Of a stretch of 37,088 nucleotides of DNA, positions 4,849-37,088 are shown piece by piece. Position numbers and translations under genes: made by a program. The notes under the pieces are model-generated. The model was not told the DNA's origin, did no database searches, and worked only from the letters and a program-made list of their open reading frames with translations. This stretch comes from Escherichia phage T7. The stretch is from sequence record OL964748.1; one strand, 5' to 3'. How positions within the stretch are numbered: position 1 is the stretch's first letter; each line of letters opens with the position of its first letter.

Positions 4849-5928
4849 ATGATGAACATTAAGACTAACCCGTTTAAAGCCGTGTCTTTCGTAGAGTCTG
4901 CCATTAAGAAGGCTCTGGATAACGCTGGGTATCTTATCGCTGAAATCAAGTACGATGGTGTACGCGGGAACATCTGCGTAGACAATACTGCTAACAGTTA
5001 CTGGCTCTCTCGTGTATCTAAAACGATTCCGGCACTGGAGCACTTAAACGGGTTTGATGTTCGCTGGAAGCGTCTACTGAACGATGACCGTTGCTTCTAC
5101 AAAGATGGCTTTATGCTTGATGGGGAACTCATGGTCAAGGGCGTAGACTTTAACACAGGGTCCGGCCTACTGCGTACCAAATGGACTGACACGAAGAACC
5201 AAGAGTTCCATGAAGAGTTATTCGTTGAACCAATCCGTAAGAAAGATAAAGTTCCCTTTAAGCTGCACACTGGACACCTTCACATAAAACTGTACGCTAT
5301 CCTCCCGCTGCACATCGTGGAGTCTGGAGAAGACTGTGATGTCATGACGTTGCTCATGCAGGAACACGTTAAGAACATGCTGCCTCTGCTACAGGAATAC
5401 TTCCCTGAAATCGAATGGCAAGCGGCTGAATCTTACGAGGTCTACGATATGGTAGAACTACAGCAACTGTACGAGCAGAAGCGAGCAGAAGGCCATGAGG
5501 GTCTCATTGTGAAAGACCCGATGTGTATCTATAAGCGCGGTAAGAAATCTGGCTGGTGGAAAATGAAACCTGAGAACGAAGCTGACGGTATCATTCAGGG
5601 TCTGGTATGGGGTACAAAAGGTCTGGCTAATGAAGGTAAAGTGATTGGTTTTGAGGTGCTTCTTGAGAGTGGTCGTTTAGTTAACGCCACGAATATCTCT
5701 CGCGCCTTAATGGATGAGTTCACTGAGACAGTAAAAGAGGCCACCCTAAGTCAATGGGGATTCTTTAGCCCATACGGTATTGGCGACAACGATGCTTGTA
5801 CTATTAACCCTTACGATGGCTGGGCGTGTCAAATTAGCTACATGGAGGAAACACCTGATGGCTCTTTGCGGCACCCATCGTTCGTAATGTTCCGTGGCAC
5901 CGAGGACAACCCTCAAGAGAAAATGTAA
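4849..5928 (+). CDS. 1.3: ATP-dependent DNA ligase (gene 1.3)
   Basis: 359-aa ORF with the ligase adenylation motif context (IAEIKYDGVRG). Confidence 0.95.
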   Translation: MMNIKTNPFKAVSFVESAIKKALDNAGYLIAEIKYDGVRGNICVDNTANSYWLSRVSKTIPALEHLNGFDVRWKRLLNDDRCFYKDGFMLDGELMVKGVDFNTGSGLLRTKWTDTKNQEFHEELFVEPIRKKDKVPFKLHTGHLHIKLYAILPLHIVESGEDCDVMTLLMQEHVKNMLPLLQEYFPEIEWQAAESYEVYDMVELQQLYEQKRAEGHEGLIVKDPMCIYKRGKKSGWWKMKPENEADGIIQGLVWGTKGLANEGKVIGFEVLLESGRLVNATNISRALMDEFTETVKEATLSQWGFFSPYGIGDNDACTINPYDGWACQISYMEETPDGSLRHPSFVMFRGTEDNPQEKM

Positions 5929-5935
5929 TCACACT

Positions 5936-5967
5936 GGCTCACCTTCGGGTGGGCCTTTCTGCGTTTA
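5936..5967 (+). terminator. Early intrinsic terminator TE (for E. coli RNA polymerase)
   Basis: GC-rich hairpin ggctcacc-ttcg-ggtgggcc followed by tttctgcgttta. Confidence 0.85.
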
Positions 5968-5978
5968 TAAGGAGACAC

Positions 5979-6001
5979 TTTTACGACTCACTAAAGGAGG
6001 T
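5979..6001 (+). promoter_or_regulatory. T7 promoter phi1.5 with altered upstream edge (-16/-15 TT instead of AA)
   Basis: ttttacgactcactaaaggagg; core -14..+6 intact, -17..-15 region formed by the gene 1.4 deletion junction. Confidence 0.7.
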
Positions 6002-6008
6002 ACACACC

Positions 6009-6098
6009 ATGATGTACTTAATGCCATTACTCATCGTCATTGTAGGATGCCTTGCGCTCCACTGTAGCGATGATGATATGCCAGATGGTCACGCTTAA
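6009..6098 (+). CDS. 1.5: gene 1.5 protein (29 aa)
   Basis: MMYLMPLLIVIVGCLALHCSDDDMPDGHA; hand-translated. Confidence 0.75.
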   Translation: MMYLMPLLIVIVGCLALHCSDDDMPDGHA

Positions 6099-6118
6099 TA
6101 CGACTCACTAAAGGAGAC
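6096..6118 (+). promoter_or_regulatory. T7 promoter phi1.6
   Basis: taatacgactcactaaaggagac overlapping the gene 1.5 stop. Confidence 0.85.
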
Positions 6119-6123
6119 ACTAT

Positions 6124-6390
6124 ATGTTTCGACTTCATTACAACAAAAGCGTTAAGAATTTCACGGTTCGCCGTGCTGACCGTTCAATCGTATGTGCGAG
6201 CGAGCGCCGAGCTAAGATACCTCTTATTGGTAACACAGTTCCTTTGGCACCTAGCGTCCACATCATTATCACCCGTTGTGACTTTGAGAAAGCAATAGAC
6301 AAGAAACGTCCGGTTCTTAGTGTGGCAGTGACCCGCTTCCCGTTCGTCCGTCTGTTACTCAAACGAATCAAGGAGGTGTTACACCTGTAA
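6124..6390 (+). CDS. 1.6: gene 1.6 protein with altered C-terminus (ends ...KEVLHL)
   Basis: 88-aa ORF; 3' end and stop codon are created by the 1.6/1.7 junction deletion. Confidence 0.8.
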
Positions 6391-6406
6391 CAAAGGAGCT
6401 AACGAT

Positions 6407-6866
6407 ATGACCGAACGTGAACAAGAGATGATCATTAAGTTGATAGACAATAATGAAGGTCGCCCAGATGATTTGAATGGCTGCGGTATTCTCTGCTCCA
6501 ATGTCCCTTGCCACCTCTGCCCCGCAAATAACGATCAAAAGATAACCTTAGGTGAAATCCGAGCGATGGACCCACGTAAACCACATCTGAATAAACCTGA
6601 GGTAACTCCTACAGATGACCAGCCTTCCGCTGAGACAATCGAAGGTGTCACTAAGCCTTCCCACTACATGCTGTTTGACGACATTGAGGCTATCGAAGTG
6701 ATTGCTCGTTCAATGACCGTTGAGCAGTTCAAGGGATACTGCTTCGGTAACATCTTAAAGTACAGACTACGTGCTGGTAAGAAGTCAGAGTTAGCGTACT
6801 TAGAGAAAGACCTAGCGAAAGCAGACTTCTATAAAGAACTCTTTGAGAAACATAAGGATAAATGTT

Positions 6867-6874
<8 letters not shown>
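6407..6874 (+). CDS. 1.7: N-terminally truncated gene 1.7 protein (nucleotide kinase), residues ~42-196 of gp1.7
   Basis: 155-aa ORF MTEREQEMIIKLIDNNEGRPDDLNGCG... preceded by AAGGAG Shine-Dalgarno; the first ~41 codons of the 196-aa protein are absent. Confidence 0.8.
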
Positions 6875-7207
<333 letters not shown>

Positions 7208-7275: not shown

Positions 7276-7974
7276 ATGGCTAAGAAGATTTTCACCTCTG
7301 CGCTGGGTACCGCTGAACCTTACGCTTACATCGCCAAGCCGGACTACGGCAACGAAGAGCGTGGCTTTGGGAACCCTCGTGGTGTCTATAAAGTTGACCT
7401 GACTATTCCCAACAAAGACCCGCGCTGCCAGCGTATGGTCGATGAAATCGTGAAGTGTCACGAAGAGGCTTATGCTGCTGCCGTTGAGGAATACGAAGCT
7501 AATCCACCTGCTGTAGCTCGTGGTAAGAAACCGCTGAAACCGTATGAGGGTGACATGCCGTTCTTCGATAACGGTGACGGTACGACTACCTTTAAGTTCA
7601 AATGCTACGCGTCTTTCCAAGACAAGAAGACCAAAGAGACCAAGCACATCAATCTTGTTGTGGTTGACTCAAAAGGTAAGAAGATGGAAGACGTTCCGAT
7701 TATCGGTGGTGGCTCTAAGCTGAAAGTTAAATATTCTCTGGTTCCATACAAGTGGAACACTGCTGTAGGTGCGAGCGTTAAGCTGCAACTGGAATCCGTG
7801 ATGCTGGTCGAACTGGCTACCTTTGGTGGCGGTGAAGACGATTGGGCTGACGAAGTTGAAGAGAACGGCTATGTTGCCTCTGGTTCTGCCAAAGCGAGCA
7901 AACCACGCGACGAAGAAAGCTGGGACGAAGACGACGAAGAGTCCGAGGAAGCAGACGAAGACGGAGACTTCTAA
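7276..7974 (+). CDS. 2.5: Single-stranded DNA-binding protein (gene 2.5)
   Basis: 232-aa ORF with acidic C-terminal tail ...DEDDEESEEADEDGDF. Confidence 0.95.
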   Translation: MAKKIFTSALGTAEPYAYIAKPDYGNEERGFGNPRGVYKVDLTIPNKDPRCQRMVDEIVKCHEEAYAAAVEEYEANPPAVARGKKPLKPYEGDMPFFDNGDGTTTFKFKCYASFQDKKTKETKHINLVVVDSKGKKMEDVPIIGGGSKLKVKYSLVPYKWNTAVGASVKLQLESVMLVELATFGGGEDDWADEVEENGYVASGSAKASKPRDEESWDEDDEESEEADEDGDF

Positions 7975-8394
7975 GTGGAACTGCGGGAGAAAATCCTTGA
8001 GCGAATCAAGGTGACTTCCTCTGGGTGTTGGGAGTGGCAGGGCGCTACGAACAATAAAGGGTACGGGCAGGTGTGGTGCAGCAATACCGGAAAGGTTGTC
8101 TACTGTCATCGCGTAATGTCTAATGCTCCGAAAGGTTCTACCGTCCTGCACTCCTGTGATAATCCATTATGTTGTAACCCTGAACACCTATCCATAGGAA
8201 CTCCAAAAGAGAACTCCACTGACATGGTAAATAAGGGTCGCTCACACAAGGGGTATAAACTTTCAGACGAAGACGTAATGGCAATCATGGAGTCCAGCGA
8301 GTCCAATGTATCCTTAGCTCGCACCTATGGTGTCTCCCAACAGACTATTTGTGATATACGCAAAGTGAGGCGACATGGCAGGTTACGGCGCTAA
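7975..8394 (+). CDS. 2.8: gene 2.8 protein, HNH-type endonuclease-like (GTG start)
   Basis: 139-aa ORF with HNH-like motif (CHRVMSNAP...HSCDNPLCCNPEHL); GTG start immediately after the 2.5 stop. Confidence 0.8.
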   Translation: MELREKILERIKVTSSGCWEWQGATNNKGYGQVWCSNTGKVVYCHRVMSNAPKGSTVLHSCDNPLCCNPEHLSIGTPKENSTDMVNKGRSHKGYKLSDEDVMAIMESSESNVSLARTYGVSQQTICDIRKVRRHGRLRR

Positions 8395-8824
8395 AGGAAT
8401 CCGAAAGGTTGGAGCGTTTCGCTCTGGCCTAGAGGACAAGGTTTCAAAGCAGTTGGAATCAAAAGGTATTAAATTCGAGTATGAAGAGTGGAAAGTGCCT
8501 TATGTAATTCCGGCGAGCAATCACACTTACACTCCAGACTTCTTACTTCCAAACGGTATATTCGTTGAGACAAAGGGTCTGTGGGAAAGCGATGATAGAA
8601 AGAAGCACTTATTAATTAGGGAGCAGCACCCCGAGCTAGACATCCGTATTGTCTTCTCAAGCTCACGTACTAAGTTATACAAAGATTCTCCAACGTCTTA
8701 TGGAGAGTTCTGCGAAAAGCATGGTATTAAGTTCGCTGATAAACTGATACCTGCTGAGTGGATAAAGGAACCCAAGAAGGAGGTCCCCTTTGATAGATTA
8801 AAAAGGAAAGGAGGAAAGAAATAA
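8375..8824 (+). CDS. 3: Endonuclease I (gene 3), Holliday junction resolvase
   Basis: 149-aa ORF MAGYGAKGIRKVGAFRSGLEDKVSKQLE... Confidence 0.95.
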   Translation: MAGYGAKGIRKVGAFRSGLEDKVSKQLESKGIKFEYEEWKVPYVIPASNHTYTPDFLLPNGIFVETKGLWESDDRKKHLLIREQHPELDIRIVFSSSRTKLYKDSPTSYGEFCEKHGIKFADKLIPAEWIKEPKKEVPFDRLKRKGGKK

Positions 8825-11164: not shown

Positions 11165-11187
11165 TAATACGACTCACTAAAGGCCAC
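11165..11187 (+). promoter_or_regulatory. T7 promoter phi4.3
   Basis: taatacgactcactaaaggcc. Confidence 0.8.
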
Positions 11188-11305
11188 ACAGTCACGCGCT
11201 CTGGCGATTCGCTCCAACGAACTGGCTGACAGTGCATCCACTAAAGTTACCGAGGCTGCCCGTGTGGCAAACCAAGCTCAACAGCTTTCCAAATTCTTTG
11301 AGTAA
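11183..11305 (+). pseudogene. 4.3: 3' remnant of gene 4.3; ribosome-binding site, start codon and 5' coding region missing (100-bp deletion)
   Basis: Gene 4 stop to gene 4.5 start is 100 bp shorter than expected; remaining sequence runs from the promoter straight into ...KFFE-stop (TAA 11303..11305). Confidence 0.6.
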
Positions 11306-11324
11306 TCAAACAGGAGAAACCATT

Positions 11325-11594
11325 ATGTCTAACGTAGCTGAAACTATCCGTCTATCCGATACAGCTGACCAGTGGAACCGTCGAGTCCACATCAACGTTC
11401 GCAACGGTAAGGCGACTATGGTTTACCGCTGGAAGGACTCTAAGTCCTCTAAGAATCACACTCAGCGTATGACGTTGACAGATGAGCAAGCACTGCGTCT
11501 GGTCAATGCGCTTACCAAAGCTGCCGTGACAGCAATTCATGAAGCTGGTCGCGTCAATGAAGCTATGGCTATCCTCGACAAGATTGATAACTAA
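11325..11594 (+). CDS. 4.5: gene 4.5 protein (89 aa)
   Basis: MSNVAETIRLSDTADQWNRRVHINVRNGKATMVYRWKD...; the track ORF 11232..11594 is an upstream extension. Confidence 0.85.
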   Translation: MSNVAETIRLSDTADQWNRRVHINVRNGKATMVYRWKDSKSSKNHTQRMTLTDEQALRLVNALTKAAVTAIHEAGRVNEAMAILDKIDN

Positions 11595-11993: not shown

Positions 11994-14108
11994 ATGATCG
12001 TTTCTGACATCGAAGCTAACGCCCTCTTAGAGAGCGTCACTAAGTTCCACTGCGGGGTTATCTACGACTACTCCACCGCTGAGTACGTAAGCTACCGTCC
12101 GAGTGACTTCGGTGCGTATCTGGATGCGCTGGAAGCCGAGGTTGCACGAGGCGGTCTTATTGTGTTCCACAACGGTCACAAGTATGACGTTCCTGCATTG
12201 ACCAAACTGGCAAAGTTGCAATTGAACCGAGAGTTCCACCTTCCTCGTGAGAACTGTATTGACACCCTTGTGTTGTCACGTTTGATTCATTCCAACCTCA
12301 AGGACACCGATATGGGTCTTCTGCGTTCCGGCAAGTTGCCCGGAAAACGCTTTGGGTCTCACGCTTTGGAGGCGTGGGGTTATCGCTTAGGCGAGATGAA
12401 GGGTGAATACAAAGACGACTTTAAGCGTATGCTTGAAGAGCAGGGTGAAGAATACGTTGACGGAATGGAGTGGTGGAACTTCAACGAAGAGATGATGGAC
12501 TATAACGTTCAGGACGTTGTGGTAACTAAAGCTCTCCTTGAGAAGCTACTCTCTGACAAACATTACTTCCCTCCTGAGATTGACTTTACGGACGTAGGAT
12601 ACACTACGTTCTGGTCAGAATCCCTTGAGGCCGTTGACATTGAACATCGTGCTGCATGGCTGCTCGCTAAACAAGAGCGCAACGGGTTCCCGTTTGACAC
12701 AAAAGCAATCGAAGAGTTGTACGTAGAGTTAGCTGCTCGCCGCTCTGAGTTGCTCCGTAAATTGACCGAAACGTTCGGCTCGTGGTATCAGCCTAAAGGT
12801 GGCACTGAGATGTTCTGCCATCCGCGAACAGGTAAGCCACTACCTAAATACCCTCGCATTAAGACACCTAAAGTTGGTGGTATCTTTAAGAAGCCTAAGA
12901 ACAAGGCACAGCGAGAAGGCCGTGAGCCTTGCGAACTTGATACCCGCGAGTACGTTGCTGGTGCTCCTTACACCCCAGTTGAACATGTTGTGTTTAACCC
13001 TTCGTCTCGTGACCACATTCAGAAGAAACTCCAAGAGGCTGGGTGGGTCCCGACCAAGTACACCGATAAGGGTGCTCCTGTGGTGGACGATGAGGTACTC
13101 GAAGGAGTACGTGTAGATGACCCTGAGAAGCAAGCCGCTATCGACCTCATTAAAGAGTACTTGATGATTCAGAAGCGAATCGGACAGTCTGCTGAGGGAG
13201 ACAAAGCATGGCTTCGTTATGTTGCTGAGGATGGTAAGATTCATGGTTCTGTTAACCCTAATGGAGCAGTTACGGGTCGTGCGACCCATGCGTTCCCAAA
13301 CCTTGCGCAAATTCCGGGTGTACGTTCTCCTTATGGAGAGCAGTGTCGCGCTGCTTTTGGCGCTGAGCACCATTTGGATGGGATAACTGGTAAGCCTTGG
13401 GTTCAGGCTGGCATCGACGCATCCGGTCTTGAGCTACGCTGCTTGGCTCACTTCATGGCTCGCTTTGATAACGGCGAGTACGCTCACGAGATTCTTAACG
13501 GCGACATCCACACTAAGAACCAGATAGCTGCTGAACTACCTACCCGAGATAACGCTAAGACGTTCATCTATGGGTTCCTCTATGGTGCTGGTGATGAGAA
13601 GATTGGACAGATTGTTGGTGCTGGTAAAGAGCGCGGTAAGGAACTCAAGAAGAAATTCCTTGAGAACACCCCCGCGATTGCAGCACTCCGCGAGTCTATC
13701 CAACAGACACTTGTCGAGTCCTCTCAATGGGTAGCTGGTGAGCAACAAGTCAAGTGGAAACGCCGCTGGATTAAAGGTCTGGATGGTCGTAAGGTACACG
13801 TTCGTAGTCCTCACGCTGCCTTGAATACCCTACTGCAATCTGCTGGTGCTCTCATCTGCAAACTGTGGATTATCAAGACCGAAGAGATGCTCGTAGAGAA
13901 AGGCTTGAAGCATGGCTGGGATGGGGACTTTGCGTACATGGCATGGGTACATGATGAAATCCAAGTAGGCTGCCGTACCGAAGAGATTGCTCAGGTGGTC
14001 ATTGAGACCGCACAAGAAGCGATGCGCTGGGTTGGAGACCACTGGAACTTCCGGTGTCTTCTGGATACCGAAGGTAAGATGGGTCCTAATTGGGCGATTT
14101 GCCACTGA
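11994..14108 (+). CDS. 5: DNA polymerase (gene 5), family A polymerase with 3'-5' exonuclease
   Basis: 704-aa [42 protein letters not shown]... Confidence 0.98.
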
Positions 14109-14123
14109 TACAGGAGGCTACTC

Positions 14124-14480
14124 ATGAACGAAAGACACTTAACAGGTGCTGCTTCTGAAATGCTAGTAGCCTACAAATTTACCAAAGCTGGGTACACTGT
14201 CTATTACCCTATGCTGACTCAGAGTAAAGAGGACTTGGTTGTATGTAAGGATGGTAAATTTAGTAAGGTTCAGGTTAAAACAGCCACAACGGTTCAAACC
14301 AACACAGGAGATGCCAAGCAGGTTAGGCTAGGTGGATGCGGTAGGTCCGAATATAAGGATGGAGACTTTGACATTCTTGCGGTTGTGGTTGACGAAGATG
14401 TGCTTATTTTCACATGGGACGAAGTAAAAGGTAAGACATCCATGTGTGTCGGCAAGAGAAACAAAGGCATAAAACTATAG
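14124..14480 (+). CDS. 5.3: gene 5.3 protein
   Basis: 118-aa ORF at the canonical position after gene 5. Confidence 0.85.
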   Translation: MNERHLTGAASEMLVAYKFTKAGYTVYYPMLTQSKEDLVVCKDGKFSKVQVKTATTVQTNTGDAKQVRLGGCGRSEYKDGDFDILAVVVDEDVLIFTWDEVKGKTSMCVGKRNKGIKL

Positions 14481-16504: not shown

Positions 16505-16771
16505 ATGTGTTTCTCACCGAAAATTAAAACTCCGAAGATGGATACCAATCAGATTCGAGCCGTTGAGCCAGCGCCTCTGACCCAAGAAGTGTCAAGCGTG
16601 GAGTTCGGTGGGTCTTCTGATGAGACGGATACCGAGGGCACCGAAGTGTCTGGACGCAAAGGCCTCAAGGTCGAACGTGATGATTCCGTAGCGAAGTCTA
16701 AAGCCAGCGGCAATGGCTCCGCTCGTATGAAATCTTCCATCCGTAAGTCCGCATTTGGAGGTAAGAAGTGA
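16505..16771 (+). CDS. 6.7: gene 6.7 protein (virion protein)
   Basis: 88 aa from MCFSPKIKTPKMDTNQIRAVEPAPLTQEV...; the track ORF starts upstream at 16484. Confidence 0.8.
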   Translation: MCFSPKIKTPKMDTNQIRAVEPAPLTQEVSSVEFGGSSDETDTEGTEVSGRKGLKVERDDSVAKSKASGNGSARMKSSIRKSAFGGKK

Positions 16772-19209: not shown

Positions 19210-20133
19210 ATGGCTGAATCTAATGCAGACGTATATGCATCTTTTGGCGTGAACTCCGCTGTGATGTCTGGTGGTTCCGTTGAGGAACATGAGCAGAACA
19301 TGCTGGCTCTTGATGTTGCTGCCCGTGATGGCGATGATGCAATCGAGTTAGCGTCAGACGAAGTGGAAACAGAACGTGACCTGTATGACAACTCTGACCC
19401 GTTCGGTCAAGAGGATGACGAAGGCCGCATTCAGGTTCGTATCGGTGATGGCTCTGAGCCGACCGATGTGGACACTGGAGAAGAAGGCGTTGAGGGCACC
19501 GAAGGTTCCGAAGAGTTTACCCCACTGGGCGAGACTCCAGAAGAACTGGTAGCTGCCTCTGAGCAACTTGGTGAGCACGAAGAGGGCTTCCAAGAGATGA
19601 TTAACATTGCTGCTGAGCGTGGCATGAGTGTCGAGACCATTGAGGCTATCCAGCGTGAGTACGAGGAGAACGAAGAGTTGTCCGCCGAGTCCTACGCTAA
19701 GCTGGCTGAAATTGGCTACACGAAGGCTTTCATTGACTCGTATATCCGTGGTCAAGAAGCTCTGGTGGAGCAGTACGTAAACAGTGTCATTGAGTACGCT
19801 GGTGGTCGTGAACGTTTTGATGCACTGTATAACCACCTTGAGACGCACAACCCTGAGGCTGCACAGTCGCTGGATAATGCGTTGACCAATCGTGACTTAG
19901 CGACCGTTAAGGCTATCATCAACTTGGCTGGTGAGTCTCGCGCTAAGGCGTTCGGTCGTAAGCCAACTCGTAGTGTGACTAATCGTGCTATTCCGGCTAA
20001 ACCTCAGGCTACCAAGCGTGAAGGCTTTGCGGACCGTAGCGAGATGATTAAAGCTATGAGTGACCCTCGGTATCGCACAGATGCCAACTATCGTCGTCAA
20101 GTCGAACAGAAAGTAATCGATTCGAACTTCTGA
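19210..20133 (+). CDS. 9: Capsid assembly (scaffolding) protein (gene 9)
   Basis: 307-aa acidic ORF MAESNADVYASFGVNSAVMSGGSVEEHEQNMLALD... Confidence 0.95.
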   Translation: MAESNADVYASFGVNSAVMSGGSVEEHEQNMLALDVAARDGDDAIELASDEVETERDLYDNSDPFGQEDDEGRIQVRIGDGSEPTDVDTGEEGVEGTEGSEEFTPLGETPEELVAASEQLGEHEEGFQEMINIAAERGMSVETIEAIQREYEENEELSAESYAKLAEIGYTKAFIDSYIRGQEALVEQYVNSVIEYAGGRERFDALYNHLETHNPEAAQSLDNALTNRDLATVKAIINLAGESRAKAFGRKPTRSVTNRAIPAKPQATKREGFADRSEMIKAMSDPRYRTDANYRRQVEQKVIDSNF

Positions 20134-20146
20134 TAGACTTCGAAAT

Positions 20147-20169
20147 TAATACGACTCACTATAGGGAGA
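20147..20169 (+). promoter_or_regulatory. T7 promoter phi10 with the gene 10 leader and strong RBS
   Basis: taatacgactcactatagggagaccacaacggtttccctctagaaataattttgtttaactttaagaaggagatatacat ATG. Confidence 0.95.
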
Positions 20170-20226
20170 CCACAACGGTTTCCCTCTAGAAATAATTTTG
20201 TTTAACTTTAAGAAGGAGATATACAT

Positions 20227-36937: not shown

Positions 36938-37088
36938 TCTCACAGTGTACGGACCTAAAGTTCCCCCATAGGGGTACCTAAAGCCCAGCCAATCACCTAA
37001 AGTCAATGACCTTGAGGGTTCCCTAAGGGTTGGGGATGACCCTTGGGTTTGTCTTTGGGTGTTACCTTGAGTGTCTCTCTGTGTCCCT
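36938..37088. repeat. Right terminal direct repeat
   Basis: Identical to 1..151. Confidence 0.95.

Follow-up and report, generated by a model that had tools for sequence, protein, structure and literature searches.

Exactly 100 bp absent from the gene 1.6/1.7 junction of a phage T7 genome: a probable designed Cas9 deletion that leaves the ORF for the 17-kDa form of gp1.7

How a bacteriophage T7 genome came to lack exactly 100 bp at the boundary of genes 1.6 and 1.7, and what can still be made from the two genes, are the questions raised by the window analysed here, the whole 37,088 nt stretch of Escherichia phage T7 DNA in record OL964748.1. Both alignment of window positions 5900-7100 and whole-genome blastn against wild-type T7 (NC_001604, the coordinates of which are marked WT below) place the absent segment at WT 8163-8262. 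A four-way alignment around the two genes contains a single gap of exactly 100 columns, the size that the initial annotation had given. As the ends of the deleted segment share no base with the retained flanks, the placement of this gap is unambiguous. The aligned region includes the end of the ligase gene, the terminator TE, phi1.5, gene 1.5, phi1.6 and genes 1.6, 1.7, 1.8 and 2; the annotated position of phi1.6, WT 7895, corresponds to window 6113 (an offset of 1782). A scan of the junction for sigma-70 promoters and terminators returned nothing above shuffled sequences.

6096-6118, + strand: T7 promoter phi1.6 (TAATACGACTCACTAAAGGAGAC), intact, driving genes 1.6 and 1.7
6380-6381, no strand: deletion junction, between T (6380) and A (6381), with 0 nt of microhomology

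Wild-type gene 1.6 (WT 7906-8166) encodes an 86 aa protein ending KEVF, with its TGA overlapping the ATG of gene 1.7 (WT 8166-8756, 196 aa) in an ATGA arrangement. The deletion begins at the last base of gene 1.6 codon 86 and consists of the 3 nt preceding the gene 1.7 ATG and 97 nt of gene 1.7 counted from that ATG, which take in codons 1-32 and a single base of codon 33. The native start of gene 1.7 therefore lies inside the missing segment, as had been proposed, while codons 33-41 are retained in the DNA but no longer translated. Gene 1.6 now runs on through TTA CAC CTG TAA, the wild-type ACC TGT AAC being read as CAC CTG TAA in its frame, and its product ends KEVLHL, in agreement with the initial annotation; the accompanying suggestion that the stop was created at the junction proved wrong, as the TAA pre-exists out of frame 8 nt to the right. 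That annotation was right, however, to start the surviving gene 1.7 ORF at Met42, behind a Shine-Dalgarno sequence of its own.

6124-6390, + strand: gene 1.6 variant, 88 aa, with G52C (window 6277) and the C-terminal F86 changed to L-H-L
6388-6390, + strand: TAA, the new gene 1.6 stop, formerly an out-of-frame triplet within gene 1.7 codons 34-36
6393-6398, + strand: Shine-Dalgarno AAGGAG of the internal gene 1.7 start, with an 8-nt spacer to the ATG at 6407
6407-6874, + strand: 5'-truncated gene 1.7, encoding WT residues 42-196 (155 aa; calculated mass 17.7 kDa), with DUF3310 at residues 81-143 of the product

The altered gp1.6 points to the source of the genome. In a collection of 15 billion proteins, the exact 88 aa sequence occurs solely under UJQ71061.1, UJQ71103.1 and UJQ71145.1 (T71t1_7, T71t2_7 and T71t3_7, of clones T7_1t1, T7_1t2 and T7_1t3), and both T71t1_7 and T71t1_8 exist as recorded protein names. 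The window is most likely clone T7_1t1, a sister of T7_1t2 (OL964749) and T7_1t3 (OL964750). Both sisters share with it the 8163-8262 junction, the 88 aa gp1.6, the 155 aa gp1.7, both gene 1.6 substitutions, and the 1.4, 4.3, 4.7, 3.8, 0.3-0.7 and right-end deletions. By contrast, gene 5.3 is intact in the window, whereas WT 16642-16741 is missing from T7_1t2 and T7_1t3; an additional 75-bp deletion, between phi1.1A and phi1.1B, is found in the window and not in the sisters; and a 21-bp repeat close to phiOL varies in copy number between the clones, which also differ by a few substitutions. Relative to the 37,063 bp of T7_1t2, the window gains 100 bp through its intact gene 5.3 and loses 75 bp between phi1.1A and phi1.1B, which adds up to its 37,088 bp and suits a third sibling. 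When 50,697 phage records were searched by megablast, T7 was matched at 99.8-99.9% identity, with OL964749 and OL964750 aligning across the junction in a single piece and wild-type T7 records in three; a 70-bp probe spanning the junction did not discriminate between them by megablast, since its half-matches in wild-type records were joined into one place.

The reduction of the window genome amounts to 7.13%, and a value of 7.1% is quoted for T7_100_t2 in a study of phage genome reduction by a method named CiPGr (Yuan et al., NAR 2022, PMC9825161). In this procedure, 200-bp cassettes are synthesized on chips, each combining a 20-bp spacer with a homology template of 100 bp made up of 50-bp arms. 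Each gene is targeted both by a 'cassette-100', designed to delete 100 bp, and by a 'cassette-gene', designed to remove the gene entirely; the phage are then passaged on cells containing Cas9, lambda-Red and the plasmid library (PMC9825161). In the authors' tally, gp1.7 falls among the genes 'deleted or disrupted' and gp1.6 among those 'not detected' as removable (PMC9825161), which fits an edit targeted to gene 1.7. Within the missing segment, a candidate protospacer, ACCCGCCAGTACAAGCAACT, with PAM GGG, is located at WT 8203-8222 (gene 1.7 codons 13-19, 37 nt into the gene), and is centred exactly, in a 40+20+40 arrangement. The position of this target within gene 1.7 marks the edit as one made by a gene 1.7 cassette, although ACCCGCCAGTACAAGCAACT is assigned as the putative spacer from the geometry of the deletion rather than from the authors' list.

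The same geometry recurs elsewhere. A + strand 20-mer followed by NGG is centred 40/40 in four out of four unambiguous exact 100-bp deletions, three of them in the window (WT 8163-8262, 14172-14271 and 39565-39664) and one carried by the sisters (WT 16642-16741). A + strand protospacer is so centred in only 6.1% of the 100-bp intervals of T7, and four out of four would thus be expected by chance with P ~1.4e-5. A fifth 100-bp deletion, WT 13341-13440, can be placed in four ways (3 nt of ambiguity, within WT 13340-13443), and in one of them a minus-strand site lies at its centre.

The events at the gene 1.6/1.7 boundary can be reconstructed on this basis. Cas9 would have cut the protospacer ACCCGCCAGTACAAGCAACT at WT 8203-8222, and the break would have been repaired from a plasmid-borne template with an arm of 50 bp on each side, joining ...AAGGAGGTGTT to ACACCTGTAAC... 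(WT 8162 to 8263) and removing the protospacer along with 40 bp to each side. The edited phage, having lost the target, would escape further cutting and be selected.

6331-6380, + strand: left 50 bp, equal to WT 8113-8162, the putative left homology arm (arm length from PMC9825161)
6381-6430, + strand: right 50 bp, equal to WT 8263-8312, the putative right homology arm (arm length from PMC9825161)

In total, the window differs from NC_001604 by eleven deletions or rearrangements and 36 substitutions. The deletions are of three kinds: flush and exactly 100 bp; flush and removing a whole ORF (genes 1.4 and 7.7); or flanked by direct repeats of 9-17 bp.

11912/11913: 100-bp deletion in gene 4.7 (WT 14172-14271), protospacer and NGG centred 40/40
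36824/36825: 100-bp deletion at the right end (WT 39565-39664), centred 40/40, where NC_001604 has no annotated gene
about 11180-11183: 100-bp deletion of phi4.3 and the start of gene 4.3 (WT 13341-13440)
5981/5982: gene 1.4 deletion (WT 7608-7763), 156 bp, flush, exactly ATG through TAA
17476/17477: gene 7.7 deletion (WT 19848-20216), 369 bp, flush, from the ATG to 24 nt before the end
573/574: repeat-flanked deletion (WT 541-644), 9-bp repeat GTCAACCGG
1172/1173: repeat-flanked deletion (WT 1244-2723), 13-bp repeat
4280/4281: repeat-flanked deletion (WT 5832-5906), between the 17-bp cores of phi1.1A and phi1.1B, in the window only
9294/9295: repeat-flanked deletion in gene 3.8 (WT 11177-11453), 9-bp repeat AAAGGGAGA

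T7 readily recombines between short direct repeats, and the four repeat-flanked deletions look like products of such spontaneous recombination rather than templated edits. The presence in the same genome of these losses (WT 541-644, 1244-2723, 5832-5906 and 11177-11453), each with direct repeats of 9-17 bp, lends some credence to the idea that the gene 1.6/1.7 gap arose likewise, or represents a natural polymorphism between strains. Yet this junction has 0 nt of repeat, the loss is of exactly 100 bp centred on a Cas9 target in the manner of the other 100-bp deletions, and the joined sequence occurs only in the clones of one engineering study, a search of IMG/VR having found no instance of it; a spontaneous origin is accordingly very unlikely. 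That the gap is an error of assembly or sequencing is scarcely credible: nothing specific speaks for it, the junction is shared by two separately deposited clone genomes that differ from the window elsewhere, and the gap fits the CiPGr experimental design. The absence of these 100 bp is almost certainly due to a designed CRISPR-Cas9 deletion in a published genome-reduced phage T7, an origin that the initial annotation overlooked.

The other changes in the genome provide further context. Excision of gene 1.4, which is also seen in T7_30L and the sister clones, means that phi1.5 now starts TTTTACGACTCACTAAAGGAG rather than TAATACG, as the gene 1.4 TAA constituted the first three bases of this promoter. 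The gene 7.7 deletion, present in T7_1t2 and absent from T7_1t3, retains the sequence immediately upstream of gene 8. Both whole-ORF deletions are of the cassette-gene type, though the clone names suggest a cassette-100 library. The WT 1244-2723 deletion puts codons 1-106 of gene 0.3 in frame with the C-terminal portion of gene 0.7, and the resulting ORF is annotated as 'protein kinase' (854-1549) in a sister record. In gene 7.3, a 12-bp in-frame deletion is found at window 17220 (WT 19579-19590), the sister records annotating a correspondingly shorter ORF. Gene 1.8 ends in TAA rather than TGA at window 7012 (WT 8894), 4 nt ahead of the gene 2 ATG, a substitution common to the window and the sisters. 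The terminal repeat (1-151 and 36938-37088) is 151 bp long rather than 160 bp, both copies having 1-bp (WT 34) and 8-bp (WT 71-78) deletions, and several clustered differences at WT 196-235, within arrays of 13-bp repeats, may derive from the parental stock or from assembly. A 21-bp unit close to the left end is present once in wild-type T7, three times in T7_1t2 and four times in T7_1t3.

364-428: three tandem copies of the 21-bp unit AATCATTGTCTTTATTAATAC, just upstream of phiOL

G>T and C>A are common among the 36 substitutions, of which 11 fall in a GG or CC usable as an NGG PAM, against the 20% of positions expected. In gene 1.6, which the CiPGr study failed to delete, G8059T destroys a TGG PAM, probably as an escape mutation from Cas9. 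The second substitution in this gene (G8034T, window 6252) is synonymous. As for the new C-terminus of gp1.6, the protospacer with 40 bp on either side overruns the start of gene 1.7 by 3 nt, removing the ATGA overlap, and the tail change is therefore collateral to the centring of the deletion on the protospacer and not on the gene. Separately, Pfam assigns gp1.6 to PF06726, 'Bladder cancer-related protein BC10', with 82 bits, and the same precomputed label is attached to wild gp1.6 homologues (for example L007, positions 867-1127); BLASTP of gp1.6 against an approximate human BLCAP sequence detected no similarity (E = 1.8), and the label looks misleading for the phage proteins.

6277, + strand: G>T substitution (WT 8059; G8059T, gp1.6 G52C), destroying the TGG PAM of the gene 1.6 protospacer WT 8038-8057

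There remains the question of what the truncated gene 1.7 encodes. The annotated reference protein is 196 aa long, as the initial annotation had assumed, and a short form starting MTEREQ is recorded as a second product beside it: an exact-sequence look-up matched the 155 aa product without a single difference to GenBank ADE21720.1, 'nucleotide kinase gp1.7 17-kDa [Escherichia phage T7]', and the form beginning at Met42 is therefore already on record as a product of the wild-type gene. From this identity it follows that the allele probably makes the short isoform only and is not null. The 17- and 22-kDa forms, according to what Tran et al. are said to have described in J Biol Chem in 2012, co-purify as an approximately 12-mer and have nearly identical kinase activity. 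DUF3310 (PF11753), which occupies wild-type residues 122-184, is unchanged in the 155 aa product, scoring 82.1 bits against a Pfam gathering cut-off of 24. In alignments of 20 and 49 sequences, all invariant gp1.7 columns are at or after wild-type residue 50, and Met42 is nearly invariant among homologues of the long form. The RNA around the Met42 start is weakly structured, with folding energies of -4.7 (wild type) and -6.7 (mutant) kcal/mol that are no better than those of shuffled sequences. A search of solved structures for gp1.7 relatives found none that was related.

In the proposed scheme, only the 17-kDa isoform would be translated, from phi1.5 and phi1.6 transcripts via its own Shine-Dalgarno sequence; ribosomes terminating at the new gene 1.6 stop, 16 nt upstream, might assist initiation at Met42, and the product would keep its kinase activity. 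An allele with the same engineered origin could instead be functionally null, if the internal start were poorly used once uncoupled from the native start, or if the 155 aa protein were unstable or inactive. This appears unlikely, but has several observations on its side. The authors count gp1.7 among their deleted or disrupted genes (PMC9825161). The PHROG 'nucleotide kinase' profile spans wild-type residues 20-196, so around 22 family-conserved residues (GCIACLEKDDRYPHTCNKGAN) are lost, residues 20-41, including a C21-x2-C24 ... H33-x-C35 motif. An AlphaFold2 model of a 197 aa homologue, built from the 49-sequence alignment, is of low confidence (mean pLDDT 53) and, although its only 10-residue blocks averaging at least 70 pLDDT are within residues 41-100, such a model cannot show that the core folds independently. 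Against a null allele stand the deposition of the exact 155 aa sequence as the 17-kDa kinase form (ADE21720.1), the location of DUF3310 and of every invariant alignment residue downstream of Met42, the well-spaced Shine-Dalgarno sequence in weakly structured RNA, the native length of about 155 aa in K1F-type phages, and wild relatives that keep the ORF intact behind a frameshift. The ADE21720.1 identity, the complete DUF3310 and the K1F-type relatives of around 155 aa thus strengthen the earlier proposal that production of a truncated kinase may continue.

Removal of the 22-kDa protein with retention of the 17-kDa form, rather than a null allele, is consequently the most likely outcome as judged from the sequence; production of an active 17-kDa kinase from this genome seems probable. 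For the reading as a whole, a cassette-100 edit of gene 1.7 that keeps the 17-kDa form, we estimate a probability of about 0.9.

The deletion is therefore already known, being a deliberate edit in a deposited phage that leaves a described isoform. With somewhat less assurance than its retained activity, the allele can be viewed as an accidental clean separation of isoforms, that is, a T7 with the 17-kDa but not the 22-kDa gp1.7. Were this so, the scoring of gp1.7 as 'disrupted' by CiPGr would not mean that kinase function is lost, and the phage could be used to probe the N-terminal 41 residues (CxxC...HxC), for instance through dideoxythymidine sensitivity or triggering of Avs5, a defence protein reported to be responsive to gp1.7 (PMC11897194). 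Where a gene has an internal start, losing 100 bp from its 5' end need not knock it out; because such a start can survive the disruption, cassette-based calls of essentiality or removability can overstate functional loss. Deletions centred on protospacers can also change a neighbouring gene. Gene 1.7 is dispensable under laboratory conditions (PMC9712115), and beyond bookkeeping and this methodological point its deletion has little significance.

A number of other forms of gene 1.7 can be compared with this allele. Tran et al. reportedly described, in 2008, a complete deletion of gene 1.7 from T7, which made the phage resistant to dideoxythymidine, to which the wild type is sensitive. Complete deletions, such as the Cas13a-selected T7 delta-gp1.7 (PMC9712115), resemble the window in being engineered lesions of a gene that is nonessential in the laboratory, but they remove the coding sequence, whereas the present allele leaves 155 aa bearing the domain, with a start of their own. 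The product itself matches the 17-kDa form of ADE21720.1 in its length of 155 aa, its MTEREQ start and its origin at Met42 of the 196 aa protein; wild-type T7 makes this form alongside the 22-kDa form from one gene, while the window cannot make the latter. Across 1,034 gp1.7 homologues, lengths fall into classes of approximately 197, 180 and 155 aa. K1F and its relatives belong to the 155 aa class and, like the gp1.7 of the window, have DUF3310 and four cysteines at wild-type positions 67, 71, 76 and 79; in K1F itself the native protein has 155 aa, and its start codon overlaps the stop of gene 1.6. These short proteins are natural, start MTTYD and did not arise through this deletion, in contrast to that of the window. 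A closer parallel is found in three wild T7 relatives of the 180 aa class, L007 (1127-1201), L008 and L009, from three sequencing runs, in which two inserted bases (CA) within a CACACAC run shift the reading frame of the N-terminal portion of gene 1.7 (MSGCIACLEKDDRYPHTHL, then a stop), giving a 19-codon ORF followed by an intact 155 aa ORF from the equivalent of Met42. This frameshift is a natural counterpart of the engineered gene 1.7 allele.
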